DNA of 64,000 nt from an uncultured Spirochaetota bacterium (GTDB lineage: Bacteria > Spirochaetota > Spirochaetia > SZUA-6 > Fen-1364). Both the position numbers and the translations under genes were made by a program. The notes beneath the pieces were generated by a model, which did not search any database, had not been told where the DNA came from, and saw only the letters and a list, made by a program, of their open reading frames with translations. The stretch covers positions 3,040,001 to 3,104,000 of the forward strand of contig CAWGAA010000001.1 in NCBI GenBank assembly GCA_963820525.1, read 5' to 3'. Positions 40,617 through 56,990 of the stretch are shown one piece after another (positions within the stretch are counted from its first letter, which is position 1; the number at the start of each line of letters is the position of its first letter).

Positions 40617-42540
40617 CCAATCTTCGACAGTTTGGCCCCCTTAAAAAGTGCATTCCCCTCGAATTTGCGGGGAATTTGAAGGTTTTTTTACAACTGGACC
40701 ACTTTATGTAGTGCCACGGAATTGGCAGTTTATGAAGAAAATGCTTGCACAGATGGCCTCTTCATGGTAGTATCCGTAGAGGGGGAGGCAGGCAATGTTC
40801 GTCCGCATCAAGAACTCGCACGGATACAAGTACCTTCAGATCGTTGAAAGCAAGCGTGAGGGCAAAAAGGTCAAACAACGTGTCCTCACCACCCTCGGCC
40901 AACTGGATGCACTCACCGCATCAGGCAAGATCGATGACCTCACCCGATCGCTGGCGAAGTTCTCCTCGATTCGAACGATCATCGATGCTCACCGCGAGGG
41001 CACCATCCAAGCGCACCGCACACTGTCCATCGGTCCCGCCCTTCTCTTCGACCGATTGTGGCAGCAGTTGGGGATCAAAGAGGCGATAAAGGGCCAAGTG
41101 GCCGCTCGCCCATGGCGCTTCTCCCTGGAACGGGCGATCTTCCTCACCGTCCTGCACCGCCTCTTCGATCCGGGAAGCGACCGCGCGGCAGAGCGCTGGA
41201 AGGAGGATTTCCAGATCAGCGGGACAGAGGGAATCGAGCTTCATCACCTCTACCGCGCCATGGGCTGGCTGGGAGAACAGAGCATCCAGCTCGGCCATGA
41301 TGCGCGAAGCCTGCGCTGCCGAAAGGACCTCATCGAAGAGGAGCTTTTTCGCCGTAACCGCGATCTGTTCAGCGAGTTGGAGCTGGTGTTCTTCGACACC
41401 ACGAGCCTGTACTTCGAGGGGCAAGGGGGAGAAAGCCTGGGACAGTACGGGCACAGCAAGGACCACAGACCCGACCTGAAACAGATGGTGGTCGGCGCGG
41501 TGCTGGACGGCACTGGGCGGCCGATCTGCTGCGAGCTGTGGCCAGGGAACCTCACCGATGTCACCTCCCTTATCCCGGTGGTCCAACGACTGAAGAGCCG
41601 CTTCGCAATCGCTTCGGTGTGCGTGGTGGCAGACCGCGGGATGATAAGCGCAGAGACGATCGAGAAACTTGAAACTGATGAGCTTGGCATGTCCTACATC
41701 CTTGGAGCGCGCATGCGCAAGGACAAGACGGTGCGCGATGAAGTGCTTCCTTCCTCTGAGAAGTTCCAAGTAGTCACAGGAGAGAAGAAGAAGCCTGGGG
41801 ATCCCTCCCCCCTATCGGTGCGGGAGCAGTGGGTGGGGGAGAAGCGTTACGTGGTCTGTTACAACGACGATCAGGCCCGAAAGGATGCCGCGGACAGAAA
41901 GGCCATCGTGGAGTCTTTGAAAGAGAAGCTCAAAAGCGGGGACAAGAGCCTCGTGGGCAATAAGGGCTACAGGCGATACCTGAAGTCCGCGGGAAAGGAG
42001 CACTTCACCGTCGACGAGGCCAAGCTCGCGAAGGAGCAGCTGTTCGACGGCATGTGGGTGCTGCGCACCAATACCGCGTTTGCCGCCGCGGATGTGGCAC
42101 TGAAGTACAAGCAGCTATGGATGGTGGAATCGATATTCCGTTCGGCCAAGAGTCTTCTGGAGACCCGCCCTATCTATCACAAAGTTGACGACACTATCCG
42201 GGGGCATGTGTTCTGCAGTTTCCTCGCGCTTGTTCTACGAAAAGAGCTGGAAACGAGACTTGAGAAGCACGGGGCCAAGCTGGAGTGGGCGGATATCAAT
42301 AGGGACCTTCGAGCACTGCAGGAAGTGGAAGTGGAAATGCATGGCAAGAAGCTGTATCTGCGCACCGACCTTCGGGGGGTATGCCACACGGTATTGCAGG
42401 CTGCGGGTGTCGCGGTGCCGCAGACGGTTCGCGAATGATCGCCATGCTAGGGGAAGTCGCGCTGTAGTGCCAAAGAAATTCCGTCGGCTTCTAATTCCTT
42501 ACGGGGCAAGTACTTCATTTTTCAAACTGTCGAAGATGGG
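40617..42540 (+). mobile_element. IS1634 family insertion sequence (1924 bp)
   Basis: TIRs CCAATCTTCGACAGTTTG / CAAACTGTCGAAGATGGG (17/18); CTAGA duplicated at 40612-40616 and 42541-42545. Confidence 0.92.
40795..42438 (+). CDS. IS1634 family DDE transposase
   Basis: FFDTTSLYFEG, GHSKDHRPDLKQ, VADRGM, VESIFR, RPIYH, IRGHVFCSFLA. Confidence 0.93.
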   Translation: MFVRIKNSHGYKYLQIVESKREGKKVKQRVLTTLGQLDALTASGKIDDLTRSLAKFSSIRTIIDAHREGTIQAHRTLSIGPALLFDRLWQQLGIKEAIKGQVAARPWRFSLERAIFLTVLHRLFDPGSDRAAERWKEDFQISGTEGIELHHLYRAMGWLGEQSIQLGHDARSLRCRKDLIEEELFRRNRDLFSELELVFFDTTSLYFEGQGGESLGQYGHSKDHRPDLKQMVVGAVLDGTGRPICCELWPGNLTDVTSLIPVVQRLKSRFAIASVCVVADRGMISAETIEKLETDELGMSYILGARMRKDKTVRDEVLPSSEKFQVVTGEKKKPGDPSPLSVREQWVGEKRYVVCYNDDQARKDAADRKAIVESLKEKLKSGDKSLVGNKGYRRYLKSAGKEHFTVDEAKLAKEQLFDGMWVLRTNTAFAAADVALKYKQLWMVESIFRSAKSLLETRPIYHKVDDTIRGHVFCSFLALVLRKELETRLEKHGAKLEWADINRDLRALQEVEVEMHGKKLYLRTDLRGVCHTVLQAAGVAVPQTVRE

Positions 42541-42615
42541 CTAGAGATTTTCTTCGACGCATGCCATCCGTCACAATTGCATTCTTGCTAATTAGCTCTG
42601 GCTAGCAAACTGACC

Positions 42616-43224
42616 TTATTGTTGGGGCTTGTAGATGAAGGGTCCATCACTATCTTTATATATTTTGGTAAATTCAGGACCAATAGGAATGAGATATTTC
42701 TTGCTTTTCCTATACTCTGTCTTGGACGCAGTTTCTCTACAAACGAGTTGGGCAATTCTTGTTCCAGGATAAAGTGCGATAGGAACATTTGAGATATTCG
42801 CGAGTTCAAGAGTAATGCATCCCTTGAAACCTGGTTCAATAGTGACGGCTGTTGCAATTACTAGACCTATGCGCGCTATCGAAGATCTCCCTTCGATGGA
42901 AGCTTCGATATTTGCTGGGAGCCCTATATATTCAAACGTTGAGCCAAGCACCATTGTTTGCGGGTGGAGGTAGAACGGCGTTCCAAAAGGAACGACGACC
43001 TCTGTTTGTATAGACTTGATCTTTTCTTTGTCATGCATAAGAGATTTCGGATCAATTGCATTAATGTTTTCAATTCGAAATATAATGAATTGATTGGAGA
43101 GACGAAGATCAATTCCTATTTGATTGATCTGGAGATCACGGTCAAGCAATGGAGTTACTACGAGTTTACTCACATCGGACCGGTTAAGATATTCAATCAA
43201 TTCATTCTTAGACAAGGTGCTCAT
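42616..43224 (-). CDS. dcd: dCTP deaminase (trimeric dUTPase fold), accessory AT-rich copy
   Basis: IDLRL, EGRSSIARIGL, IEPGFKGCITLELAN, LYPGTRIAQL. Confidence 0.9.
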   Translation of the reverse strand: MSTLSKNELIEYLNRSDVSKLVVTPLLDRDLQINQIGIDLRLSNQFIIFRIENINAIDPKSLMHDKEKIKSIQTEVVVPFGTPFYLHPQTMVLGSTFEYIGLPANIEASIEGRSSIARIGLVIATAVTIEPGFKGCITLELANISNVPIALYPGTRIAQLVCRETASKTEYRKSKKYLIPIGPEFTKIYKDSDGPFIYKPQQ

Positions 43225-44530
43225 CAGCTGGACCTTTCGAATTCTGATACTCCGAGTCTACATAACTTGAAAAGAGAGACTTAAGAAGTAGACGCATTAG
43301 TATTTGATAATTCGTGATAAACTCATCACCTTTCGATATTTGATCGATCTTTTGGTAATATATCCATCCGGCAAGAATAATATCCGCCATTCCCACAGGT
43401 TTGCCGTGCAATTCATTAGCCGGAATGATATCGTCAAGCTTCAGGTACAATTCGTCGATTTGATTAGGATTGAGATAGTACTTTGGGACTTGGCTCTGAG
43501 CATAGGATATAATATCGGGAAGAGATGCCTTAAAAAGCTTGATCTCCTCTGCAATATCAGTCAGAGCTTTTTGATCCTCATTATCAGAAAGGTACTGCTC
43601 GATGTCCTGCAGATATCTTTTATAGTACTTTGAGCATTCGGACTTAGAGGTAGCTACGGGGGCCATCCTTCCGTCAATCTTTAAAATCTCTTCATATAGT
43701 ACTCTTATACGATACTTGATTGGCGGATAATAATTAGTAAATCTGCTGGGTAATTCTATTTTGCCTTCAAATATGGATATAAAATCTAAAGCAAATAGCA
43801 TCGAAGGGCCAAAGATAAGATATCCACAAATGTCTGAAAGAATCTCACGATACATACCTTCAAGTATCTTCATGCCTTCTATGGTCTTTTCATATGGACG
43901 GAATAGATCAGCGGGAAACTTCTTTCGGTAGTAGGTGCTCAGATGAACGTTCTGATCTAAAATCAGTTTCTTTGCTTCAGGTGTTTCTTTCCATCTATTA
44001 TGGTAGAAATGACCCAATTCATGACCGATCACCGAATAGAGAAGAACATTGGTCTTCTCGAGATAAGGAAACGAAAAGACATGAATTTTCTGAGTGGAAA
44101 ATAGGCTGCTAATCTCTTGTGCTCGAGTCGGGAATATGGTAAGTAGCACATTGCTTAAGGGTCTGATAAGATCGTCTGTCATAACGGAATAGTTAAAATG
44201 CCATTGCGGCCTGAATAAGAGTAGATAGTCGGTTCCAAATTGCTCCTTAAGCATGCGATCAAGATATGGAATAACACTCCATGGAATATTTGCAGTTGAT
44301 GCCCGTTCTATATAGCGAACACTAGGTATGAATCTGGTCGAAATGAATATGAACAAAACCTTGTATGTTGATTCCTCAATCTCACCAAAGTGATCAACAA
44401 AATACTGGATGAACTTCTTGTAGCTGTCTATTGCAAGCACACAGGATTGGTTATAAAAATCAACGGTCTTGATTTCATCGAGATAGTTTCTAGCGCTAAT
44501 GAGCTTTCTATATAGCTTATTCTCAATCAT
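43208..44530 (-). CDS. Putative zincin metallopeptidase (HExxH), 440 aa
   Basis: IGHELGH, downstream REILSD, GP and YPPIKYRI; stop overlaps dcd start. Confidence 0.65.
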   Translation of the reverse strand: MIENKLYRKLISARNYLDEIKTVDFYNQSCVLAIDSYKKFIQYFVDHFGEIEESTYKVLFIFISTRFIPSVRYIERASTANIPWSVIPYLDRMLKEQFGTDYLLLFRPQWHFNYSVMTDDLIRPLSNVLLTIFPTRAQEISSLFSTQKIHVFSFPYLEKTNVLLYSVIGHELGHFYHNRWKETPEAKKLILDQNVHLSTYYRKKFPADLFRPYEKTIEGMKILEGMYREILSDICGYLIFGPSMLFALDFISIFEGKIELPSRFTNYYPPIKYRIRVLYEEILKIDGRMAPVATSKSECSKYYKRYLQDIEQYLSDNEDQKALTDIAEEIKLFKASLPDIISYAQSQVPKYYLNPNQIDELYLKLDDIIPANELHGKPVGMADIILAGWIYYQKIDQISKGDEFITNYQILMRLLLKSLFSSYVDSEYQNSKGPADEHLV

Positions 44531-44547
44531 TTGTTGCGCGTGATTCT

Positions 44548-45004
44548 TTACGCATACTGAAGGGAAGATTGGCTATGCGAAAGTACGTTATAGTTTTCTG
44601 AGTAGATTTTGCTGATCTTCTCAAAGAAATCTTGGAGGTCTGTCGAGGCCTGCCCCTTGTAAAATTTGCCTAGGATTGAGATCAAAATCAGCGAGTTGCT
44701 CTCTAATCTGCGTAAAGTAGTTTTTGAGGGAATTGAGCTTTTCTCTGTTTAGCGGAGTTGTCAGGCTTTCCGTAATCTCAATGACGTCTTTGAGATTTGG
44801 GACGAATTGAAAAACACCCGTAATATCAGATTGATATATATCGACGCCAAGTGTGTCCAGTGATCTAATTAGCTGATCTAAGAATGCTAAACCTTCTTTT
44901 AAGTAGGCTTTAGAGGTTGGAGATAGTGGCGTTTTTGAAGTTATAAGGGTGTGTCGAATGTTATCAAAAATAACCTGAAGTCGAAATTCTTCAAGATTTT
45001 CCAT
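44548..45004 (-). CDS. Hypothetical helical protein (~151 aa), apparent +1 frameshift near 44668
   Basis: GGAGG RBS and ATG 45004; alternative frame continues KFYKGQASTDLQDFFEKISK to TAA at 44548, 17 nt before the next ATG. Confidence 0.6.
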
Positions 45005-45072
45005 GATCTGCCCCTCCCCTAATATATGTCCATTTATACCACTTCGGAGCACTCACTGCAAATACTTTTTTC

Positions 45073-45115
45073 GCATAACATTGTATTAAACTGCATAGGA
45101 CTCTGGCGCAATGGC
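45073..45115 (-). other. Remnant 3' half of an attC (R' GTTATGC) marking start of the last cassette
   Basis: Minus strand GCAGTTTAATACAAT-GTTATGC, no matching R''. Confidence 0.45.
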
Positions 45116-45249
45116 CTATAGCGTCCTGCAAATATGTGACGCGGCCCTGAGGCCAACAAGGCCGAAGGGCCGTGTGGCGGAGCGGCGCGCTGCAGCGCCG
45201 CGGAACCCAAGGCGCCTACTGGCGCCGATGCACATATTTGCTGTTATGT
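45116..45249 (-). other. attC site with degenerate R' core (GCTATAG)
   Basis: R'' ACATAAC contains the gene's TAA; GCAAATATGTG/CACATATTTGC arms; homologous to the other attCs. Confidence 0.8.
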
Positions 45250-46149
45250 GGAGCCCTGCGGTTGCGTGCGCCTTGATCGTATCTTTGTAACTCTATCTAA
45301 TTCTTTTGTGTATTCGGGCCAACTTGTATTGAAAGGTTTACTCTCATCCTTATTTGAAATGAAAGGATAGTGCAACTGACCCATTGTGGAGTTGATGTAC
45401 TCTTCAAGGTACTCCAGCAGTGTTACCTCACTCTGCGGAGTCGTGCCAGCCAACTCCATTTCTAGTTCGTTCAGTTTGTTATGCAGGTCGATCCAGATGA
45501 CTGGGTATTCCTTGTTTCCCAAGACGCCTTTCAAAACGACTTTGTTCTGACAAAAAAGTCGAATGTCATTTCTTCGAAGGGTCAGGAAGTTGTCCCTCAT
45601 CAAAAGTATGGCAAGCTCGACGGATATCACGAATTTACCAATTTCCGCAAATTTGGAGATTCTAAATCCGATGTCAATGGATTTTCCGATGAACTCTGTT
45701 CTTTCACTCTCTACTCTGGAGTTGTCAACAGGAGTATTCCCGGTCCACGCAGTTCCCTTTATCTTGAGCTCACTGGTCTCATTGAATCTCGCGATTGCCT
45801 TCCTAAATACATTGATGTACCACAGTATCAACGAATATTGGCTATCTTCAGCAGGCTTCACTTCTCGGAACGATTCAATGATGCTTATGAAAAACAGCAG
45901 CTCGTCACCATTGATTTTCCATTGAGAAGGAACGGGCAGCGTGAGTTCTCTCTTTTTGCCTGCATTGACCCTTATAGCAGCTCGACTGCATTCTTCTTTC
46001 AGTATTTGAGAAAATTCGCTGTAGAAGTCGCTAAGTGATACAGTCCAATCGCGATCCTGGTATTTTCGCTGAGTCGAATCAATTACGTCAACGCTCAGGA
46101 AGAGGAAAAAATCCTCTTTATTGACTTCTACAGGTTCATGTGGGCGCAT
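45244..46149 (-). CDS. Divergent class III nucleotide cyclase-like protein (cassette gene)
   Basis: FLSVDVIDST, WKINGDE, FIGKSIDIGFRISKFA...VIS, LKG; AGGAGG RBS. Confidence 0.6.
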   Translation of the reverse strand: MRPHEPVEVNKEDFFLFLSVDVIDSTQRKYQDRDWTVSLSDFYSEFSQILKEECSRAAIRVNAGKKRELTLPVPSQWKINGDELLFFISIIESFREVKPAEDSQYSLILWYINVFRKAIARFNETSELKIKGTAWTGNTPVDNSRVESERTEFIGKSIDIGFRISKFAEIGKFVISVELAILLMRDNFLTLRRNDIRLFCQNKVVLKGVLGNKEYPVIWIDLHNKLNELEMELAGTTPQSEVTLLEYLEEYINSTMGQLHYPFISNKDESKPFNTSWPEYTKELDRVTKIRSRRTQPQGST

Positions 46150-46177
46150 CCATAGACCTCCTAGATCGCAGGGTTCC

Positions 46178-46307
46178 ACATAACGTCCCGCAAGTATACG
46201 ACTTGGCCCGAGGCCAACATGGCCGAGGGCCATGTGGTGGAGCGGCGCGCTGCAGCGCCGCGGAGCCCAAGCCGCCCGCCAGGGCGGCGAAGCACATATT
46301 TGCTGTT
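46178..46307 (-). other. attC site; its original R'' box is displaced to 48025-48031 by IS1182
   Basis: ACATAAC...CATATTTGCTGTT, near-identical internal sequence to attC 45116-45249. Confidence 0.85.
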
Positions 46308-48024
46308 GATTCTGTAGGAAAAGCCACGCGCCTACTTTACGCTATTTGATATCCAGCGCACAATAGCTTCATGGCGCGGTATAAGGATCATAATCAGGAT
46401 CAAGGCGAGTTTATTGTCGTCCAGTTCAGCGAGCAACTGCTTATGGATACCTTCGAATACACGCTCAATCACCTGATCAACGAGAAAATAGATTTATCAG
46501 CGCTCGATTCAAAGTATAAGAACGATCTTACCGGTGCTCCTGCATATGATCCTCGGGTTTTACTGAAAATCATTCTTTTCGCCTACTCCAGAGGCATATT
46601 TTCATCACGACGGATCATGGAGCTTTGCGAGACGAATATCATAGCCAAAGCGCTTTCGGCAAACTCCATCCCGCATTTCACGGTCATAGCGGATTTCATC
46701 TCATCGATGAAGGATGAAATCGCCGGCATATTTCTGAAAATCCTCATGGTGTGCCAGGAAATGGAGCTCATCGGCGGAAAGCTGTTTGCGATTGACGGAT
46801 GCAAGCTGCCGTCCAACGCGTCCAAAGAATCGAGCGGCACCTTCAGGGATCTCAAAAGGAGAAAAGAAAAACTTGAAAGAACGGTAAAACTGCTCATTCA
46901 AAAGCATACTGTAACCGACAGAGCTGAAACCGCATCAGGATCCGAAGTTTCGCCAAAGAAGAAAGCCATTGATAGGATCGACTCAAAGATCAAGCACATC
47001 GAGGACTTCCTTAAAACAGAAACGCCGAAACAGGGCAACCGTGGCAAGGAAATACAGTCGAATATCACGGATAACGATAGCGCAAAGATCAAGACTTCTC
47101 ACGGAATGATCCAGGGGTATAACGGGATCGCCCTCGCGGATGAACAAAACCAGGTCATTATAGCCACCGAAGCCTATGGGAAAGGGCAAGAACATGGGAC
47201 ATTCAAGCCCGTTCTTGAAATGGCGGAAGAGAATCTGAAAGCCATCACCGACAAGGAAGAACCTCTTTCAGGAAAGACCGTACTTGCGGACACGAATTAC
47301 TTCTGTGAAGAAAACCTAAAAACAGCCGCGGATAAGAAAATCGAGGCGATCATCCCGGACTACAACTTTCGAAAACGAGACGAGCGCTTCGTGGACAGGA
47401 AAGATCATTCGGGTATCGAGTATAAGTTTGGATTTCAAAATTTCACATATGATGAGAAAACAAACACGTATACATGTCCCAACGGGAAAACACTGAAACA
47501 TAGAGGACATGCAATACTTCATGGATCTTCGGGGCATCGTTATCAATCCAAAGCGTCCGACTTTAAGGGGTGTCGGTTTACAAATAAATGCTTTCATCGC
47601 AAAAAGAATAGCAGCGGCAAGCGGACACTCTTTATAGATGACAAGGATAATTCCACCAATTATTCGGCACAAATGATCCAGAAGATCGACCGGCCGGAGG
47701 TCAGGGATTTATATTCAAGACGGATGGCAATCATCGAACCAGTGTTTGCGAATATCACATTCCATAAGAGACTGAACAGATTCACTCTGAGAACGAAAGC
47801 GAAAGTGAATATTCAATGGCTGTTATATTGCATGGTTCATAATATAGGAAAGATTTCAAAGGCGATGTCTGGAGCGAATGCATGATGGAAAAGAAAATGC
47901 ACACCGATTGTCCGATGATCTATATCGATAGAGTAGTTTTCGCTTTCTGATCATTCATAAATCGTTTTTGAATCGAGTTTGAAGGAGAACTGTTGTCTTT
48001 TGGGCTATATTTTCCTACAGACTC
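46308..48024 (+). mobile_element. IS1182 family insertion sequence (1717 bp)
   Basis: TIRs GATTCTGTAGGAAAA / TTTTCCTACAGACTC (14/15); GTT on both flanks. Confidence 0.9.
46371..47885 (+). CDS. IS1182 family transposase
   Basis: GAPAYDPRVLLKIILFAY..G..SSRRI, IDGCKL, TDNDS, LADTNY, CPNG, IEPVFANI, HNIGK. Confidence 0.93.
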   Translation: MARYKDHNQDQGEFIVVQFSEQLLMDTFEYTLNHLINEKIDLSALDSKYKNDLTGAPAYDPRVLLKIILFAYSRGIFSSRRIMELCETNIIAKALSANSIPHFTVIADFISSMKDEIAGIFLKILMVCQEMELIGGKLFAIDGCKLPSNASKESSGTFRDLKRRKEKLERTVKLLIQKHTVTDRAETASGSEVSPKKKAIDRIDSKIKHIEDFLKTETPKQGNRGKEIQSNITDNDSAKIKTSHGMIQGYNGIALADEQNQVIIATEAYGKGQEHGTFKPVLEMAEENLKAITDKEEPLSGKTVLADTNYFCEENLKTAADKKIEAIIPDYNFRKRDERFVDRKDHSGIEYKFGFQNFTYDEKTNTYTCPNGKTLKHRGHAILHGSSGHRYQSKASDFKGCRFTNKCFHRKKNSSGKRTLFIDDKDNSTNYSAQMIQKIDRPEVRDLYSRRMAIIEPVFANITFHKRLNRFTLRTKAKVNIQWLLYCMVHNIGKISKAMSGANA

Positions 48025-48049: not shown

Positions 48050-48547
48050 TTACCGATATGATTTTGCCATTTTATCCCTTTTCTGCAAAAATTCAGGTTC
48101 CAAATGTTTGGCTAATATTTTAACTATTAAAGATATAGCCTTATCTATATCTTTATAAATATCTGACTCCCAAATGCGAATGACATTCCAGCCGCTATGT
48201 ATTAATGATTTTGTGTTCTTAATATCTCTATCAATATTATTTTCGATCTTAGCAATCCAATATTTACTATTATAGCCCTTTATCAATTTCTTTCTTCTAA
48301 GATGCCAGTCTTTTCCATGCCAAAAATCTCCATCTACAAATACTACACATTTTTCTTTAGTAAATACTATATCAGGTATACCTGGCATAGTCCTCACATT
48401 TTTCCTATAGCGTAAACCGATTTTCCATAAATAATGACGAAGTAGTACTTCTGGCTTAGTATCCTTTTTCTTACTCGCTCCGCGTGCTTTAGCTGAGGCA
48501 TTTTCTGACTTTGGATATAATCCTTTAAATGATGCATTTTTATGCAT
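48050..48547 (-). CDS. vsr: Very short patch repair endonuclease
   Basis: DTKPE, PGIPDIVF, FVDGDFWHG, YWIAKIENNIDRD, GWNVIRIWE. Confidence 0.93.
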   Translation of the reverse strand: MHKNASFKGLYPKSENASAKARGASKKKDTKPEVLLRHYLWKIGLRYRKNVRTMPGIPDIVFTKEKCVVFVDGDFWHGKDWHLRRKKLIKGYNSKYWIAKIENNIDRDIKNTKSLIHSGWNVIRIWESDIYKDIDKAISLIVKILAKHLEPEFLQKRDKMAKSYR

Positions 48548-48550
48548 GAT

Positions 48551-49540
48551 TTATCCAAATATCGCCTTATATAATCCCCCTAATTCTACAATCTCCATTT
48601 TTGATAATGGTAGAATATCAGTTAATTCTGACTTAAATCTAACATCGCTGACTTCTGCAGGAATGTTAGACGTAATTTGGGGAATTTCGATTGCATCATA
48701 TATACTAATAGTATTTAGAGCATTTGAGGAATCAAATCTTATGCGTATAGCATCTCTCCAATCTCTGCCTAAGCTCATCGTGATTATTTGTGAAATTCTT
48801 TCTTTTAATCTTTCTGATATATCCATACGCGAGGTTATTTTTTCCCAAAGATCTATGATGGAAAGGCCATTTGCTTTTTCATCTATCAGGAAAGAAACAA
48901 TCAGTATTCTATTGTTTTTCTTAGGAATTAATTGATCAAGATTGAAATTATGAATACGTATAGGACCTTTAGTCGATTTAACTTCTAATTGTTGTTCTCC
49001 ATTGACAAAGTCAAATAATTCATTCGGATCAGCGTGCCAAGCAGTTGCAGCTAAGTTAATATCGTGCGCATTAGCAATGAGAAATAGTTCACACCAAATG
49101 CCCTCAATAGAGCTTAATGGAGGAGCCTCCATTGATCTAAACAACTCAATTAGATTAGATATTATTAATAAAATGTCTATGTCTTTAGATTCCAAAGGCA
49201 TCAGTGAAATAATCCCAGATAACGCCCGCAAAAAGTATTCTCTTAATATCTGATCTGCTTTTGAGCATTTAATCATCGTGAGCCTTTCTGAAGCGATTGT
49301 TCCATCATTATTAATAATTTGGCACATACAACTGGGACGAAATGAAAAATATTTGAATTCTCTTGGAGGAATAGAAAGCTCGTTTGAATGGCTTTTAGTT
49401 GAGAATAAGAGAGCGGGATTTCCATAAGAATCTTTTGCAATATGAATATTGGGATGCCCAGGCAATACAAGTGCTGAATAGAATTCTCCAGAATCTTTAA
49501 TTTCTTTTAGATTAAGAAATAGTGAAAACAAGTCAATCAT
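48551..49540 (-). CDS. PD-(D/E)XK motif protein (DUF4420-like)
   Basis: GIWCEL, W...FDF...LEVKST; follows Z1 gene with overlap. Confidence 0.75.
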   Translation of the reverse strand: MIDLFSLFLNLKEIKDSGEFYSALVLPGHPNIHIAKDSYGNPALLFSTKSHSNELSIPPREFKYFSFRPSCMCQIINNDGTIASERLTMIKCSKADQILREYFLRALSGIISLMPLESKDIDILLIISNLIELFRSMEAPPLSSIEGIWCELFLIANAHDINLAATAWHADPNELFDFVNGEQQLEVKSTKGPIRIHNFNLDQLIPKKNNRILIVSFLIDEKANGLSIIDLWEKITSRMDISERLKERISQIITMSLGRDWRDAIRIRFDSSNALNTISIYDAIEIPQITSNIPAEVSDVRFKSELTDILPLSKMEIVELGGLYKAIFG

Positions 49541-51692
49541 TATTGTTCTCAGTATGTATAAGAATATCATCTTGCTGAGTAAGCCTTATAGCTACTGCGG
49601 GTACATTTTCATAATAATGATTATCATCTTCGATACGAAAAAAATGTATCTGAATCGTTGGCAAATCTTTCTGGAAAAATGCGCGATCGCCAGGATAAGA
49701 ATCAGCTCCAGAGCTTGAACGGCCTTGAAAAAGCTGCGGGATTATTCCTTTTGAAAGACGCCGCGTTCGCTTTAGGCCATAATGCATGAAATAGACTAAA
49801 CATTTCAAATTATTATCGAGATCAAGCATTGATTTTAGATTGCAATTAACATAGCAAAGGCCTATTGCATCTTCTTCATCGAGATATGATAGAGGTGCCA
49901 GTACATTCTCGAAAACTTCATTTAGAAAAGTGAAAGCCAATTTGTGTTGTGGAAACCTAGCATTTTCTTTGAATTGCATGTTTTCAAGAAGCTTTATAAG
50001 CTTAGCGTTGTGAAGACCTTCGCTGGGCGAATTATGCGGAGCTCGCGGTGCAAACCAATTATCCCCCAAATGTGGCCTTAGATAAGGTGTTGATAATATA
50101 TTATATCTTGTGGGTGCTAAGCTATGATCAAGATAAAAAAGTCTTCGCCATTCTTTTAAAGGGCGACCCCGATGAGCTTCTAACCGATTTCGCATATCTT
50201 GTTCATGCCTAACATAAGCTATATATGCGTACTTTACATCTGGGTGTAAATAAACTCTGCAAAAACCAAAATGTCCGCTATGATATCCAAAAAATCGCGC
50301 ACGTTGTTGTATCGTATCTGCTGTCCAACCACCTGGACCTCTAGGCATATAAGTTACAGTTAAACCTTTTACAGTATATCCACGACCTAGTTTCTCGCCA
50401 CCTACAAGAATATGTGAATATGAGTTTTGCCATTGAACTTCACGCCCTTCTATAGAATTAACTAAGGTTACAGTAGTTTGATTTATAGCTACAGGTAATT
50501 TGCCCTCAATTTGATTGAATGGCGGCAATGAAGAACAGGTACGACTTAAATCATCATAAGCGGTTCTAAAATCAGCCATTAATTCAATACGATCTGGTTC
50601 ATTCATAGCTTGTAATATTCTATGCCAGTTGTGCTTTATGGCTTCTATCCAATCATAATAATGACGATGTATAGCTATTTTTTTTGAAGCATGAACTAGC
50701 ATTGATCGATGCTCTTCAGAGTGAGAAATACGTCCAGCTGCTACGCCAATAAAATAAACTTGTAGCGCATGTAATAAAGACTCTGGAGGCTCTTCTGGCA
50801 TATGCTCATCATCAAAAAGATATGCTTGTGCAATTGTTTCAACATATATGCTGTTTTCAGCAAAAAACAGATCCCCACCTATGTATCCTTCACCAGGTGA
50901 AACAAGCTCTGCAAAATCTGCTGATAATGAATCTATTCTAGTAATTAGCAATGGAGCTTGCGGAGTTGCAGTGTATTGCAAGAAGGTATGAGATGGGAGG
51001 GCTTTTCTAAGCCCATCAATACTGACATAAGTTGCACTAGCATTTGGCTCATTCGGGCGTGTGTTCAAACTGGCCTGATCCGCTTCATCATCGAATATAA
51101 TAGAAGGTATTCCACCCAGATCGATTGAGCTTAGCAACTGTGTCAAATTATTTAAATGCCTGTAATTCTTCATTACAGTAATGAAAAGTGTTCGTCGGTC
51201 TTCATCAACATATTGATTACTTCGCCATTCTTCAATTAATGCTACGATAGCAGGTAATTCATTATCTTTTCGTGGGTTTTTTAACATATGCCACGTCCAA
51301 TCAGGCGATGCTGAACGCAAATGAGATTCCATTCTTTCACTATTTTGTGTTACGAGATTAGTTGTTATTCCAGCGATTAGAATAATAATTCTATAGCCAT
51401 TATCTTTTGCTAAAGCAGAAATAGCAGTCATCGATGCAGTTTTGCCACTTTGAACATACCCACATACAAGTCCAATCCCGGGATTCTCAGATGAAGTCGG
51501 TGGATTGCATTTAGATAGAATACGATGTGCCTCATCAATTAAGCGGTTTGCATCTTCCCCTGAGGGTAGAATCCCTTGAGTTATGAAATAATTCCTAAGT
51601 GAGTTTGTGACATTCCCAATTATTGGAACCCAATTACCATTCGAATCATGAATATTTATGATTTTAATAATTTCATTAGAGTTAATAGCCAT
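49533..51692 (-). CDS. Z1 domain-containing SF2 helicase-like protein
   Basis: GYVQSGKT, DDEAD, YTATP, SMLVH, GLTVTY, DTIQQRARFFGY. Confidence 0.88.
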   Translation of the reverse strand: MAINSNEIIKIINIHDSNGNWVPIIGNVTNSLRNYFITQGILPSGEDANRLIDEAHRILSKCNPPTSSENPGIGLVCGYVQSGKTASMTAISALAKDNGYRIIILIAGITTNLVTQNSERMESHLRSASPDWTWHMLKNPRKDNELPAIVALIEEWRSNQYVDEDRRTLFITVMKNYRHLNNLTQLLSSIDLGGIPSIIFDDEADQASLNTRPNEPNASATYVSIDGLRKALPSHTFLQYTATPQAPLLITRIDSLSADFAELVSPGEGYIGGDLFFAENSIYVETIAQAYLFDDEHMPEEPPESLLHALQVYFIGVAAGRISHSEEHRSMLVHASKKIAIHRHYYDWIEAIKHNWHRILQAMNEPDRIELMADFRTAYDDLSRTCSSLPPFNQIEGKLPVAINQTTVTLVNSIEGREVQWQNSYSHILVGGEKLGRGYTVKGLTVTYMPRGPGGWTADTIQQRARFFGYHSGHFGFCRVYLHPDVKYAYIAYVRHEQDMRNRLEAHRGRPLKEWRRLFYLDHSLAPTRYNILSTPYLRPHLGDNWFAPRAPHNSPSEGLHNAKLIKLLENMQFKENARFPQHKLAFTFLNEVFENVLAPLSYLDEEDAIGLCYVNCNLKSMLDLDNNLKCLVYFMHYGLKRTRRLSKGIIPQLFQGRSSSGADSYPGDRAFFQKDLPTIQIHFFRIEDDNHYYENVPAVAIRLTQQDDILIHTENNND

Positions 51693-53221
51693 TATTTTCC
51701 GCTTTTTTTAATAGGCCCAGATAAAGACCTTAGAATCTGATTTAAGTTTCTACGTATCGTTCCTGCTTGCCTAACGCCTGCTTCTCTTGCTGTAATTTCT
51801 GCGATTGCCAGGCCTGCAGCTAGCCGAGTAAATGGTATTATTTCATCTCCATCTGGCGAAACGAAACGGTCCATGAAGGGATGTGCTAGATTCATACGAA
51901 TATGAACTTCAATTTCTGATTTCTGCTTGTTATTTTGAGATAGCTCATACCATTCTTCATGCGATATATCATCAATAAGCTCAATTGTTATAGACCAATG
52001 CTTAAGTGCGTGATTTACTTCAATTTTAACAGATGTACTCTTAGCTTTTTCGTCTTTAGATTTTTCAAGCCTTGTAGCTAGTGGCTCATCTTTAGGCTTA
52101 TTATTTAATTGTTCTTCTATTATCGGAGATAGGTGCTGTGCAATTATATGAGTTGCATCTTCGGGTGCTTCGCTAATAACTTCCTGTATCATGTTGCTAT
52201 GAGCCCGATAATTTGCTGCTTGATCAAGTAATGGAATTGGTTTTGTATTTAACTCCGATTTTAGCCATTTTAATATATCATCTTCCCAATCTTCCCACTG
52301 AATACCATCTTTAGTATGACTAACAGAAAATCCCTGAACTTCAAGCTCTCCAATAAGTCGCTGATAAACAAATTTATTAGCTTTTCCAAAAATATATTCT
52401 GGACGGTAAGCTTCGCCACAACTGCCCTGTATTAATCTCCTTCGCCTAAATAATGCAAAGCCAGCATTTGTAACACTTCCACGTGCAAGAATTCCTGCCC
52501 ATCCTTTAACGCTATGATCATTATTAAAAACCATATTAAAATTCTTTTGCCAAATTATTGGTTTATTGTCAGGAGTTGAATGATACGGTGCTTCAAGGAA
52601 AACAGGTGGTTCATAAATCAATGGAGTCCCATCTACTTTTATCTCTAATAAATTATCTCTGATAAACAAGCGATAAATGCTACCAAGATGATCCTTTATT
52701 TTGTCTAGCGTCCGTCCTTTTGGTTTAACCAGCAAATTACTAAGAGTTATTACAGTAAAGTGCTTCTGTTCATTAACTCGATTCTCTGTTGGCTGCAATT
52801 TTTCGATATTATTCTTAACTATCATTGGTATGTCAAATACTATTGACCTCTCTACATTTTCACCAATCGCTTTTGTTCTTACTATCCAAGTTCTCGCGAA
52901 CCAGCTAGCGGCTGCTTTCATGCCAAGACCAAATTCAGACAATCCAGAAGTATCTGGCGGGATTGCAGCTGGAAGAAAGGCTCTTGCATAATCACTTATG
53001 GCTATACCAGCTGCATTATCGCGAATCTCAATATAATCATCATGCAATTCTATCTCAACTAATAGCTTATAATACTTACCATCCAATTTTCTTAGGGCAG
53101 TAATATTTGAACAGCCACTTTGTAGGGAATTATCGACAAATTCTGCTAGCGCAAACCACGGCTTGTAATTCAGTCTTGCAAATGAAGCATACATAGCTAC
53201 TTCAGGTCTGATTATTATCAA
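51692..53221 (-). CDS. GHKL (MORC/MutL-like) ATPase
   Basis: AEFVDNS, IRDNAAGI, GLSEFGLGMKAA. Confidence 0.88.
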   Translation of the reverse strand: MIIIRPEVAMYASFARLNYKPWFALAEFVDNSLQSGCSNITALRKLDGKYYKLLVEIELHDDYIEIRDNAAGIAISDYARAFLPAAIPPDTSGLSEFGLGMKAAASWFARTWIVRTKAIGENVERSIVFDIPMIVKNNIEKLQPTENRVNEQKHFTVITLSNLLVKPKGRTLDKIKDHLGSIYRLFIRDNLLEIKVDGTPLIYEPPVFLEAPYHSTPDNKPIIWQKNFNMVFNNDHSVKGWAGILARGSVTNAGFALFRRRRLIQGSCGEAYRPEYIFGKANKFVYQRLIGELEVQGFSVSHTKDGIQWEDWEDDILKWLKSELNTKPIPLLDQAANYRAHSNMIQEVISEAPEDATHIIAQHLSPIIEEQLNNKPKDEPLATRLEKSKDEKAKSTSVKIEVNHALKHWSITIELIDDISHEEWYELSQNNKQKSEIEVHIRMNLAHPFMDRFVSPDGDEIIPFTRLAAGLAIAEITAREAGVRQAGTIRRNLNQILRSLSGPIKKSGK

Positions 53222-54501
53222 ATCATATTCTCCTTAGCATGGCTTTTAGAAGGATATAAATTTTGCACAGTACTCCTTGGGCCGCGTCCGACACCAGGAT
53301 GATCAGAGTGATTTCCTTTAAGATAAAGGTATTTCTTTATGACCGGATAGCAACGAGAAGGAGGTGGACAATCCTCTCTATGAGGCGGCATTAATCGTAA
53401 AGTTAGTGGGATGCAATTTTCATTTAATAATTGCCTTCTTATTTCGAGGCCAAATAATTCTCCAATTAAGCAAGGCACTGCATTTCCTACTTGACGATGT
53501 GCTGAAGACCTATTTCCATAAATTTCATATCCATCAGGAAAAGTTTGTAAACGTGAGATTTCTTTGATACTTAGCAAGCGATTTCGCCAATGAAATGGAC
53601 CAGAAGCTGGTCCAGGACTAGCTTGTATGGTCCAAGACGGATACCTTTTTGATAATTTGAGTAGAAATGACCAGTACTTTGTCCTCCAGCCAAAAAGGGG
53701 GGTCCCATTACCACGATGAGTGTGCCATAGATAATTTTTTCCCTCAGGGATGCTTTTAATCAAATCTTTCCATTTTCCCCTAATTTGAAGGTCAGCAGAC
53801 CATTCATTTGTATCAAGATCACCAATTGCATCCCAGGAATTCCTATAAGGTTCAAGGCCGTCAGCATATCCACATATGGGAGAAGGCATATCGAGCATTT
53901 TTCCATTAATATCAGCGACAATAAAAATCCGTTTCCGTATTTGTGGAACACCATAATCTGCAGAGTTTATATAAAAGTCTTGTAGCTTATATTCAGTTCC
54001 TTTCTTTCTATTTATTCTTTCAATACCATCTTTAATTAATTCCAATCCAGATCTCTGCCTTCCATAAGCATTCCAAGATATCCCTTTTACGTTCTCGAGT
54101 AATATTACTCTTGGTAACGCTACCTCAACCACATTAAGAAAAGCTTGAAGTGTTTTTGTTCTCGGGTCACGTAAGCCAGCAGAGGTGCCATTAAACCAAT
54201 AGGTCGACTTTGAGAAAGGCTGACAAGGTGGTCCGCAAGAAAGTAGTGCGGTTTCTCCAGGTTGCAGGCCAACTTGTGATAATAGCTCAGAAGGATGAAT
54301 TCTAAAAATATCACCTGGATTGGTTAGAGTCCAAGAAGGATTATTCTTTGTTAATGTTTTTCTTGAGTCATCGTCAGCTTCGATACAGCCCTTAATACAA
54401 AATCCGGCATATTCTAGACCTAAATCCAAACCACCTGCTCCAGTGAATAATGATAAAACTAAATGTTCTGGTTTTTTTTTCTGCTTTAATCGTTTATTCA
54501 T
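53218..54501 (-). CDS. dcm: DNA (cytosine-5) methyltransferase
   Basis: LFTGAGG, GPPCQPFS, LENV, YGVPQIRKR, RLQTFPD, QVGNAV. Confidence 0.95.
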   Translation of the reverse strand: MNKRLKQKKKPEHLVLSLFTGAGGLDLGLEYAGFCIKGCIEADDDSRKTLTKNNPSWTLTNPGDIFRIHPSELLSQVGLQPGETALLSCGPPCQPFSKSTYWFNGTSAGLRDPRTKTLQAFLNVVEVALPRVILLENVKGISWNAYGRQRSGLELIKDGIERINRKKGTEYKLQDFYINSADYGVPQIRKRIFIVADINGKMLDMPSPICGYADGLEPYRNSWDAIGDLDTNEWSADLQIRGKWKDLIKSIPEGKNYLWHTHRGNGTPLFGWRTKYWSFLLKLSKRYPSWTIQASPGPASGPFHWRNRLLSIKEISRLQTFPDGYEIYGNRSSAHRQVGNAVPCLIGELFGLEIRRQLLNENCIPLTLRLMPPHREDCPPPSRCYPVIKKYLYLKGNHSDHPGVGRGPRSTVQNLYPSKSHAKENMI

Positions 54502-54896
54502 AATAAAAATGAATGGCTTCAATGGGTTTTTCAACGACCGCGGCCATGTACATATTGGATAAGACTTCAGCTATTGATATAGATTTAACGCTTGAATATT
54601 CCTTTAATGTCACCATATTGTCTTCAATAATCACCTTGATCACGGCATCGGTTTCAGTTGATTTGCGTTTACAGTTACCAGGATCGTGATCTATTCCCTC
54701 CTCTAGTTATGTAATATATCAGATCTTGACTATCATTGTACATTGTAAATTTTGGTCAATAGAAATCGGGACAATCACAAATCTCTACTGAGTTTATTAC
54801 TTAGCCTTGCAAGGATGTTTTTCATTATTGGGTAGAGCAAGAAACTGTCGTTGGTGACTGTTACATATGATACACACAAGTAGTGTTCTGCCTTTC

Positions 54897-55007
54897 ACCT
54901 AACGTTTCGAGCGTACACGACGTGGCCCGAGGCTAACAAGGCCGAGGGCCATGTGGCGGAGCCCGAGCCGCCCGCCATGGCGGCGAAGCGTGTACGCTCC
55001 GTTAGCT
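54897..55007 (-). other. attC site (111 bp)
   Basis: R'' AGCTAAC and R' GTTAGGT on minus strand; GAGCGTACACG/CGTGTACGCTC arms; 8 nt after cassette gene stop. Confidence 0.9.
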
Positions 55008-55015
55008 GAAGTGGA

Positions 55016-55536
55016 CTACGATCTTTTAAATCTTGTGGCATAAACTCTGCGTGGAAAATCGCCTTCTGCATACTCGGTTTTACTCGCATCTTTTACAATA
55101 TCTTCATTTGCGTACGCCTCTATTACTTCACCTATAAAAAGATTTTTATCTCCTGTTTCTATTTCTTGTTTAACTTTGCATTCAATATGAGCTACACACT
55201 CGGCAATAATAGGAGCTCTTACTTTTCGCGCTGGTTGTTGAGTTAATCCCGTTTCTCTAAATTTATCAAATTGATATCCTGAGTGCAAACCGCAATAATA
55301 TATTTTTGCTTTTAGCTGAGCGGGAGGAATATTTACAATAAATTCTTTATTACTTTTGATTAACTCATATGAAAAGGATTTGTTCCCTATGGCACAGGCT
55401 ATAAGTGGGGTCCCTTTGAGACAGGCATACAAAAGCTAACTGCGATGATATTTGATTTTATTTTTATCTCCCCGCAGGTTATTAAGAAATGTCTCATCGG
55501 CCACATAAATTCTAGATATTCGACATCAATATTCAT
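55016..55536 (-). CDS. Flavin reductase (DIM6/NTAB) family protein, frameshifted near 55407-55410
   Basis: EFIVNIP, DKF, APIIAECVAHIEC, GDKNLFIGEV; N-terminus MNIDVEY...MPVSK in another frame. Confidence 0.8.
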
Positions 55537-55562
55537 TTTATCTAATCTCCCTTGTCCATTTC

Positions 55563-55757
55563 AGCTAACGTAAAGGGTTTACGACATGCCCCGTCCCGAA
55601 GGGCTGGCACAGGGGTTGCCCCGCAAAACATAGAAAAGAGTGTACCACACATCTTAGAGGACCGTAAGAAGATTTGATCTGCAAGCCCTGTGCCAGAGGG
55701 GCATGTGGCGAAGCCCGGAGCGACCGGAGGGAGCGGAGCGTAAACCCTATGTTGAAC
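55563..55757 (-). other. Long attC site (195 bp)
   Basis: R'' GTTCAAC, R' GTTAGCT; nested arms AGGGTTTACG/CGTAAACCCT, ACATGCCCC/GGGGCATGT, CTGGCACAGGG/CCCTGTGCCAG. Confidence 0.8.
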
Positions 55758-55787
55758 GAAGTCGCTCCGCCCGCGCTATGGGTTTTA

Positions 55788-56990
55788 TTACGCGCTGTTC
55801 CAATAACTTTCAGCGGTATTTTCCGGCGGGAGCTCAATAATCTGAATATTCGCGCTCTTGCAGCGGGGACATCTTTTTTCGATAGTCTCAGGCGCTTCCA
55901 AGAAAAAATCATACGATCGCTGTTGAGATTCTAGATCGATGCATAACAAACGACGGATGTATTTCAGATTCTCATTTTTGTGCCCGTTGCTCAAGAGGCC
56001 GTAAAATCGTATACGCTTGAATCCTTCCGGCAGCACATGCAGGAGAAATCTTCTCATGAACTCGGAGGCGCCAAGTGTCATTACCTTTTTCCGGTTTCTA
56101 TTCCTGTAGTCCTTCCATATAAAGCTCACGTTTCCGCCGGTGAAATTCAATATCCGTTTGTTGCTGATCGCTACCCGATGCGTATAGTGCCCTATATATT
56201 TCAGTACGCGTAACGGATTGGAAAACGGCTTTTTGGCGTAGACGATCCATTTTTTCGCATAACATTCATCCAACACCTTTGCAAACCCGGCTGTCTCTGC
56301 TGTCTTGCGTAACTTACCAAAGAAACTCAACTCTTTTGCTGCATATGCCTGTTTCAAATAATGCAGGTATTTACCTCTGAACAATCGATTGAGAATGTGT
56401 ATCGAGATAAAGAAGTTGTTCCTGCTTTCAATCCATGCGGATTTATCCCGGCTCAATCCCCCTCCGGTAACAATGCAGTGCAGATGTGGATGGTCAAGTA
56501 GGTTTTGGCTCCAGGTGTGGAGAATGGCGATAAATCCGATCTTCGCGCCGAGATTCTTCGGGTTTCCCGCGGCTTCTTGAAGAGTCTCGTTTGCGGCGTG
56601 AAAGAGAATGTCGTAGAGCACTCTTTTATTCTGGAGAATAAGGGAATTCAATACCGCCGGGACGGTGAAGACGATATGGAAATATTTTATGGGCAGAAGC
56701 TCTTGTGTCCGCTCGTAAACCCATTGCGCCTGCTTGCTCGCCTGGCATTTGGGGCAATGCCGGTTCCTGCATGAATTATAGGATATCTGTTCATACCCGC
56801 ATTCATGGCAAACAAGTTTATGGCCGCCCAATTTCGGACCGCGGCAGTTTATGATTGCGTTTACGACTTTCCAATGATCATAACTGATGCCTTTCAGTAA
56901 CTGGGTGCTTTGTCTGAAAACATCGGCGACTTCGAATTTGGGTCTTGGAAAAACCGTTGCCGCTTCAATATAGCCCATGCTGTATAACAA
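55788..56990 (-). CDS. IS91 family rolling-circle (HUH, Y2) transposase
   Basis: SCRNRHCPKCQ Zn domain, HIVFTVP, HTW...HPHLHC, YIGHY, FLLHVLP, RFYGLL; start uncertain. Confidence 0.93.
   Translation of the reverse strand: MLYSMGYIEAATVFPRPKFEVADVFRQSTQLLKGISYDHWKVVNAIINCRGPKLGGHKLVCHECGYEQISYNSCRNRHCPKCQASKQAQWVYERTQELLPIKYFHIVFTVPAVLNSLILQNKRVLYDILFHAANETLQEAAGNPKNLGAKIGFIAILHTWSQNLLDHPHLHCIVTGGGLSRDKSAWIESRNNFFISIHILNRLFRGKYLHYLKQAYAAKELSFFGKLRKTAETAGFAKVLDECYAKKWIVYAKKPFSNPLRVLKYIGHYTHRVAISNKRILNFTGGNVSFIWKDYRNRNRKKVMTLGASEFMRRFLLHVLPEGFKRIRFYGLLSNGHKNENLKYIRRLLCIDLESQQRSYDFFLEAPETIEKRCPRCKSANIQIIELPPENTAESYWNSA

Follow-up and report, generated by a model that had tools for sequence, protein, structure and literature searches.

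What would a short helical protein, a protein with the HExxH motif of zinc peptidases and a deoxycytidine triphosphate (dCTP) deaminase do together in one operon? The question is raised by a locus of an uncultured Spirochaetota bacterium (assembly GCA_963820525.1, contig CAWGAA010000001.1, positions 3,040,001 to 3,104,000). This stretch of 64,000 nucleotides is referred to below as the window, and the coordinates of the operon count from its first letter. The operon consists of a small gene, a gene for a zincin-like protein (here, the zincin) and a gene for a dCTP deaminase (Dcd). We found that the linkage of these genes in other genomes, their natural fusions and their co-divergence mark them as a conserved unit. 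The module is rare, patchy in its distribution, accessory, and present in many bacterial phyla. To all appearances it is a mobile module that has not been described before, and it may act against phages. The original prediction, made from the letters of the window alone, was that the three genes are a defense operon in which a protease gates the depletion of a nucleotide. What it had observed in the sequence is confirmed, and its interpretation is partly supported. A role in defense is plausible, but the defense reading is weak.

The genes are arranged as was claimed. All three are on the minus strand, and both the open reading frames (ORFs) and the base composition indicate a compact AT-rich unit (Table 1). 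The small gene ends at 44548 and, following a gap of 17 nucleotides, the zincin gene begins with the ATG at 44530. The start of dcd overlaps the end of the zincin gene by 17 nucleotides. The G+C content of the island is 0.31-0.44, compared to approximately 0.6 in the flanks. A scan of positions 42400-45300 for promoters and terminators gave 6 promoter-like sites (6.9 expected) and 1 terminator-like site (2.3 expected).

If the genes function together, then relatives of the zincin elsewhere should also be linked to dcd, and this is what we found. We compared 43 loci that encode relatives of the zincin (designated L and a number), including five pairs of duplicates or near duplicates (L004/L020, L009/L026, L024/L025, L036/L037 and L030/L031). 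A homolog of Dcd was encoded directly after the zincin and on the same strand in 32 of the 43 loci. In each of the other 11 the contig ended, with at most 328 bases remaining after the zincin match. The linkage persisted down to 21-30% identity between zincins, and the metagenome-assembled genomes (MAGs) that carry the module are labeled Treponema, Croceivirga, Aminicenantes, Scalindua, Zixibacteria, Thermoanaerobaculia and Verrucomicrobiia. In addition, we found four natural fusions in which the zincin is followed by a DCD domain in the same polypeptide: one of 746 residues in L008, and the proteins P0084, P0106 and P0107, which were three of nine long proteins scanned. Pairwise identities of the zincins and of the Dcds were correlated across 25 loci (Mantel r 0.86, reached by 0 of 2000 permutations), a figure that is inflated by kinship of the loci. 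This co-divergence fits inheritance of the two genes as one unit. The spread of the module was extremely sporadic. A search of other genomes found the zincin in 0 of 24 from the host's family, in 1 of 400 from the host's phylum (a weak, partial match), and in 0 of 200 from the family of a second carrier, G002.

The third gene was said to encode a complete Dcd of the dUTPase fold, and the data agree. The protein scored 116 bits against PF22769 (cut-off 27) and 139.8 bits against the equivalog TIGR02274 (cut-off 92.8). The solved structures closest to it were the dCTP deaminase of Mycobacterium tuberculosis, 2qxx (E 3.6e-26), and then Escherichia coli Dcd. The motifs align with those of 2qxx, with GRSS at residues 112-115, and the catalytic Ser, Arg and Glu are kept: 15 module Dcds all have S114, R118, T138, L139, E140 and N143. 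We take Glu140 to correspond to the Glu that is catalytic in Dcd enzymes, and we assume the known catalytic roles for the Ser and the Arg likewise. The enzyme was also said to differ from the AvcD type of defensive deaminase, and indeed it had no match in PADLOC and matched only dUTPase-fold families in Pfam.

The module Dcds also have features that set them apart from three non-module Dcds used for comparison. They have IATA in place of a His-containing segment before TA, an insertion of approximately 10 residues, and a tail of the form Y-x-G-x-Y-x-x-P-x-G-P-x-F, compared to Y-x-G-K-Y-Q-x-Q in the non-module enzymes. The module Dcds vary at the Asp of DPGF, which is replaced in some by E, G, A, N or S. 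The median identity among module Dcds was 43%, and identity to the three non-module Dcds was at most 36%. We conclude that the module Dcd is a predicted catalytically complete Dcd of a distinct subfamily. It had been noted that the case for a defense operon would suffer if this were the host's only housekeeping dcd. It is not the only one, because the host genome encodes another Dcd of 184 residues, which is 33% identical to the module Dcd and has a higher score (159 bits). The genome also contains a Dut-like gene.

The middle protein contains the motifs that the original prediction had pointed out: HELGH at residues 170-174, EILSD at 229-233, and YPPxxxR at 268-274, the last in the form YPPIKYR. 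Residues P83, P155, H170, E171, G173, H174, E229, D233, P269 and R274 were invariant across 82 diverse zincins, including the entire HExxH...E...D series, which is part of the layout that had been likened to gluzincin or M48-like proteases. An AlphaFold model of the protein (predicted local distance difference test [pLDDT] score of 96) has N-terminal helices, a small sheet, a helix with HExxH (162-181), a helix with the Glu (211-240) and a C-terminal helical domain. The features that define gluzincins, HExxH followed by a Glu on a later helix, were found both in the sequence and in the model.

We also compared the gluzincin-like core (residues ~78-296, modeled alone, pLDDT 84) to known structures using VIA-align. 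The best match was ZMPSTE24 (Z 7.9, root-mean-square deviation [rmsd] 7.5, 161 residues aligned), followed by Ste24p (Z 6.7) and BepA (Z 5.9). The next matches, among them zincins of the M13, M1 and M4 types, were neprilysin, Zmp1, PepO, ECE-1, the putative Zn peptidase 3c37, DPP III and LTA4 hydrolase. The 12 best matches were zinc peptidases or putative zinc hydrolases throughout, with M48 leading. We tentatively assign the protein to the zincin fold because this list is coherent and the motif is invariant. We describe it as a putative gluzincin that weakly resembles M48 but stands in a family of its own; it falls short of the threshold for membership in M48 itself. The family includes 40 near relatives and, at E<=0.001 in a 50%-identity library, 535 clusters, none of which is named or has a Pfam domain. 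The zincin had no match in Pfam (at cut-off), NCBIfam, PHROG or PADLOC, and a profile of 23 zincins had none below E 0.2 among the sequences of the PDB. Searches with the fold of the whole protein (Foldseek against the PDB, a wide VIA-align search, and BFVD with a best E of 0.027) returned helical-bundle noise only and were set aside.

The small gene is split in the assembly into two ORFs, 44621-45052 and 44548-44685. The first frame contains an internal ATG at 45004, behind the ribosome-binding site AGGGGAGGGG, and stops at 44621. This ATG is most likely the start of the gene, judging from the sequence. The second frame runs to 44548 and holds the conserved C-terminus. The frame changes in the run CAAATTTTAC, at approximately 44662-44669, and alignment with intact homologs joins both frames there. 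One short-read contig from the public run X2 (depth 3.3) has one base fewer at 44669, which would give a continuous frame of 151 codons; the short-read contigs compared span only parts of 44300-45150. Because this low-depth contig does not have the extra base, we read the frameshift as probably an error of the assembly or a minor variant. The extra base at 44662-44669 is in an A3T4 run, and homopolymer errors may touch other genes of this assembly as well.

Of 15 long loci, 12 have an ORF of 144-185 codons directly upstream of the zincin gene. The exceptions were L028, with an ORF of 294 codons, and L009 and L017, which start at the edge of a contig. The products of these upstream ORFs could hardly be aligned (mean column identity 25-26%), and searches with tblastn found a small protein of the type in the window only in L001, L002, L011, L012 and L015 among the 43 loci. 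The best Pfam match of the small protein had an E of 0.0046, with no family above the cut-off. A protein atlas gave no usable feature match; its top structural row was a hemerythrin-like bundle with a template modeling (TM) score of 0.60, below the bar of the tool.

Modeling of the complex supports binding of the small protein to the zincin. Three chains, the proteins of L001, were modeled in three runs along with three controls, and only the small protein was scored. The interface score (ipSAE) of the small protein on the zincin was 0.51, 0.68 and 0.68 (median 0.68), compared to 0.00 for the best control. The runs shared at least 48% of contacts, and the pLDDT of the partner was at least 71. 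In a benchmark 116 of 157 solved complexes scored at least this high, as did 2 of 215 mismatched pairs, counts that apply here only approximately because custom alignments and three chains went in. On the zincin, the predicted contacts involve residues 53-69, 127-139 and 193-219 (L001 numbering). The small protein had been proposed to be a sensor, a substrate or an inhibitor. It fits the part of a subunit, partner or sensor better than that of a substrate, because it is modeled on the side of the zincin and outside the HExxH cleft. A role as substrate or inhibitor is not supported by the model.

Table 1. Features of the window and their positions.
Feature	Position	Strand	Remarks
Small gene	44548..45004	-	~151 residues if read through; helical, no family
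Zincin-like HExxH protein	43208..44530	-	440 residues; ORF
Dcd	42616..43224	-	202 residues; dUTPase-fold dCTP deaminase, predicted module-specific subfamily
HELGH (H170, E171, G173, H174)	44009..44023	-	Putative zinc-binding catalytic motif; invariant in 82 members
E229-I-L-S-D233	43832..43846	-	Helix with putative third zinc ligand (Glu; Asp four residues on); E229 and D233 invariant in 82 members
Glu140 codon (TLELAN) of Dcd	42805..42807	-	Invariant in 15 module Dcds
attC-like GC-rich element, 5' cassette border	45066..45256	+	Left core GCATAAC at 45074-45080 (GTTATGC on minus strand); ~180 nucleotides
attC-like copies	46170-46318; 54888-55016; 55556-55766		Aligned with the element at 45066-45256
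Insertion sequence (IS) copies interrupting the array	40795-42438; 46371-47885; 55788-56990		40795-42438: transposase gene, flanks the operon
329-residue protein, single-gene cassette	45244-46233	-	Sole match phrog_18024 (function unknown, E 4.9e-29)
Cassette of Dcm-type C5 methylase, HATPase_c_3, Z1, DUF4420 (PD-(D/E)XK) and Vsr	48050-54534	-

The surroundings of the operon resemble an integron array. The attC-type core GTTATGC that had been reported at the 5' border of the operon is present and is the edge of a GC-rich element. The attC-like core occurs four times in the window, compared to 0.05 times expected. A long imperfect hairpin with paired CCTAAC and GTTAG ends is predicted for the copy at 54893-55012 (z -7.0 on one strand and -6.0 on the other), which is the pattern of an attC site. 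Repeated attC-type hairpins at the borders of cassettes, as in integron arrays, were thus found. No tyrosine recombinase is encoded in the window (3040001-3104000), and there were 12 Phage_integrase matches elsewhere in the genome. The window therefore contains an attC cluster without a visible integrase. An attC-like element at the 3' end of the operon itself was not found; an IS is there instead. The units between the attC-like elements are, in order, the gene for the 329-residue protein, an IS1182-like insertion, the cassette with Vsr, DUF4420, Z1, HATPase_c_3 and Dcm, and a flavin-reductase gene. The 329-residue protein had no match in Pfam or PADLOC. PADLOC labeled genes of the large cassette as MTase_II, Helicase_II/MzaC-like and Vsr, and this cassette is a predicted methylase-linked restriction-type system.

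Clear defense neighbors, within approximately 6 kb, were found in the window, where the restriction-type cassette is close to the operon, and in two of 15 other long loci. In L028 they are a type I S subunit, a PtuA-like ATPase, a PDC-M01B-like protein and an integrase, and in L005 the neighbor is a RAMA/PDC-S14 protein. The proposed role in defense is made plausible by these three loci, by the cassette array, by the patchy spread and by the extra Dcd, but not by the other 13 of the 15. PADLOC also matched mad2, mad3 and AriA in flanking genes for ABC ATPases and an RsmB-type methyltransferase (L017, L028:9736-10953 and L037). These matches are generic, and we set them aside because Pfam identifies the proteins as transporters or an rRNA methylase. 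The original prediction recognized no named system with this set of genes, and neither did we find one in PADLOC or in the literature. Searches of open-access papers and bioRxiv gave no description of the gene set and no paper that connects a Dcd of the dUTPase fold with defense or with a zincin; the matches to 'DCD' were to an unrelated PUA-like domain.

The explanation that we favor, to which we give a probability of roughly 0.4, is that the operon is a horizontally moving three-protein module that probably acts against phages or other mobile elements, with a dedicated Dcd as effector and with the zincin and the small helical protein as its partners. The small protein on the zincin would be a regulatory or sensing subunit. 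The zincin would be physically coupled to Dcd, and in some lineages the two are in fact a single polypeptide. Following a trigger, the zincin would activate Dcd by proteolysis, most likely by way of the family-specific C-terminal lid, or by way of an inhibitory contact. Active Dcd would convert dCTP to dUTP or dUMP, and starvation for dCTP along with a rise in deoxyuridine nucleotides would halt replication of the phage or of the cell. In this scheme we infer the peptidase activity, the target of cleavage, the trigger, the anti-phage role and the gating of Dcd by a protease. A bolder version is that this is a widespread, so far overlooked immune system of three components in which an M48-like zincin, held by a small four-helix sensor, licenses Dcd by proteolysis. 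The Dcd fold would then be put to defensive use for the first time, a metalloprotease would for the first time gate a nucleotide-pool effector, and the module might poison replication with dUTP in addition to depleting dCTP; we regard this version as doubtful.

Several results weigh against a protease-gated, mobile defense module. With respect to the protease, the Z of every core match was <8 (that is, the safe level of the tool was not reached), with rmsd of 4-7.5, and Foldseek with the core found nothing at E<=0.001. The window zincin scored 11.9 bits against Pfam M48 (PF01435; cut-off 20.3), and 17 of the 82 members matched that family at E<=1, the best at 0.0035. With respect to its partner, the contacts listed for the small protein in the complex model included none at the HExxH site and none with Dcd. 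With respect to defense, PADLOC-DB 2.0.0 had no match for the small protein, the zincin or Dcd (Dcd at E<=0.01), 13 of the 15 other long loci had no clear defense neighbor, and the genes on either side of most loci are of the housekeeping kind (D-Ala-D-Ala ligase, LptF/G, def/fmt/rsmB, pantoate ligase). With respect to mobility, relatives of the zincin were absent from 72,556 plasmids and 50,697 phage records, and none were found in IMG/VR with a narrow alignment that reaches close relatives only, so movement on known vehicles is unsupported.

Part of this evidence, and some that also weighs against a role in defense, favors a role in accessory nucleotide metabolism, in which Dcd would supply precursors (dUMP/dTTP) like an ordinary Dcd, the zincin and the small protein would tune it (for example, by turnover during starvation or DNA damage), and phages would play no part. 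Genes for nucleotide metabolism flank the module at some loci. Ribonucleotide reductase genes are directly upstream of it in a Croceivirga MAG (L002:1933-4998), a deoxynucleoside kinase gene is directly upstream in a Thermoanaerobaculia MAG (L008:3917-5098), and a cytidylate kinase is among the flanking genes in L035. The positions of the reductase and the deoxynucleoside kinase could be due to chance or could reflect a link to the supply of deoxynucleoside triphosphates (dNTPs). Further, the module Dcd was the sole full-length DCD-family match in three of five other carriers (G001, G002 and G003, which are MAGs with completeness not given; a second full-length match is present in G004 and G005). 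The scarcity of defense neighbors at most loci and the score of Dcd above the equivalog cut-off point the same way. A metabolic function is nevertheless unlikely: the module is extremely sporadic, the host has its own better-scoring Dcd, the copy in the window is in an AT-rich, IS-ridden cassette array, and the module Dcds form a group of their own with an altered C-terminal lid.

A separate observation concerns L039, where a distant copy of the module is located. Beside this copy, at L039:5887-7559, there is a gene for a 420-residue protein with weak matches to nucleoside 2-deoxyribosyltransferase and to DCD; the deoxyribosyltransferase match was below the Pfam cut-off. A DUF7768 protein, a radical SAM protein and an IS110 transposase are also nearby. 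The region of the 420-residue protein may be a second nucleotide-directed unit.

The location in an integron-like array also raises the possibility of an addiction or stress module similar to toxin-antitoxin systems. Dcd would arrest growth through loss of dCTP and excess of dUTP, the zincin and the small protein would neutralize or control it, and the effect would be to stabilize the element that carries the module. Cassettes with their own control often contain toxin-antitoxin pairs. The tight operon with its translational coupling, the co-divergence, the fusions and the sporadic spread are all compatible with this idea. However, antitoxins are usually small and labile, and the partner here is an enzyme of 440 residues whose active site is invariant. 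It would also be unusual for a toxin to be fused to its neutralizer, as in the four cases found, and many loci are not on recognizable mobile elements. We consider an addiction module to be quite unlikely. It is more improbable still that the roles are reversed, with a Dcd-like protein that senses or destroys a cytosine nucleotide specific to the phage (for example, dCTP with a substituent at position 5) and a zincin that kills by cleaving an essential protein of host or phage in the manner of Lit. In favor of this idea, the module Dcds are altered near the base-binding segment (IATA) and in the lid, the DPGF Asp is not universal, and Peptidase_U49 and M48 are among the nearest named clusters of the protein atlas (at 0.78, a lead only). 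Against it, the invariant Ser, Arg and Glu of Dcd suggest that the protein turns over a substrate and does more than bind it, and Pfam U49 had no match to the window zincin at E<=1.

If the module does act in defense, as in the proposal that we favor, it would bring a new effector fold and a new principle of control, in which a metabolic enzyme is licensed by proteolysis. A sizeable orphan family, of 535 clusters with no Pfam entry, would gain a function as well. If the function is metabolic, the module would represent a new mode of regulating the supply of dCTP and dTTP.

The module has likenesses to several known systems. Its setting is similar to that of integron cassettes and of CALIN, which are clusters of attC sites without an integrase: imperfect palindromes with ends like RYYYAAC and GTTRRRY are between AT-rich units on the same strand. 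Unlike integron cassettes, the array has no integrase in the window, and the 3' element of the operon is replaced by an IS. The module Dcd shares fold, family and the catalytic Ser, Arg and Glu with housekeeping Dcd and with bifunctional dCTP deaminase-dUTPase (1xs1 of E. coli, 2qxx of M. tuberculosis and 1ogh of Methanocaldococcus jannaschii). In contrast to the housekeeping enzymes, it lacks the His-containing segment, has an insertion and a different tail, and is sporadic rather than part of the core genome. Like the M48 peptidases (Ste24/ZMPSTE24, HtpX and BepA), the zincin has HExxH, a downstream Glu and an Asp four residues on, a spacing that presumably corresponds to the 'ExxAD' pattern of M48. 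In contrast to those peptidases it has no membrane domain, has N- and C-terminal helical domains of its own and other partners, and its Pfam score is below threshold.

Depletion of nucleotides is an established antiviral strategy, and Hsueh et al. reportedly described defense by dCTP depletion with enzymes of the AvcD type. These enzymes are single proteins with a domain of the zinc cytidine-deaminase fold and a kinase-like domain, and to our knowledge the bacterial dCTP deaminase effectors described so far are all single proteins of a fold other than that of the module enzyme. Defense by depletion of dCTP is also treated in the preprint of Tal et al. (10.1101/2021.04.26.441389). The outcome that we propose for the module is like that of AvcD or DCTPdeaminase defense, in that deamination of dCTP would rob the replicating phage of a precursor of DNA. 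The enzyme itself differs from AvcD: it has the dUTPase fold (PF22769), is without a match in PADLOC, and is accompanied by a zincin and a small protein.

Immunity that is relayed by a protease is also known, from Lit (U49), which cleaves EF-Tu, and from CalpL-CalpT-CalpS and Craspase-Csx30. The logic proposed here is similar, in that a protease would turn sensing into an effector state, and the role of the small partner could be like that of CalpT or Csx30. We found no relation in sequence, and detected none in fold, between these systems and the module, and we know of none among them in which a nucleotide-converting enzyme is the coupled effector. The module couples a Dcd fold of the housekeeping type to a peptidase-like enzyme whose family has not been described, and it is a compact unit that can be tested whichever function it has.

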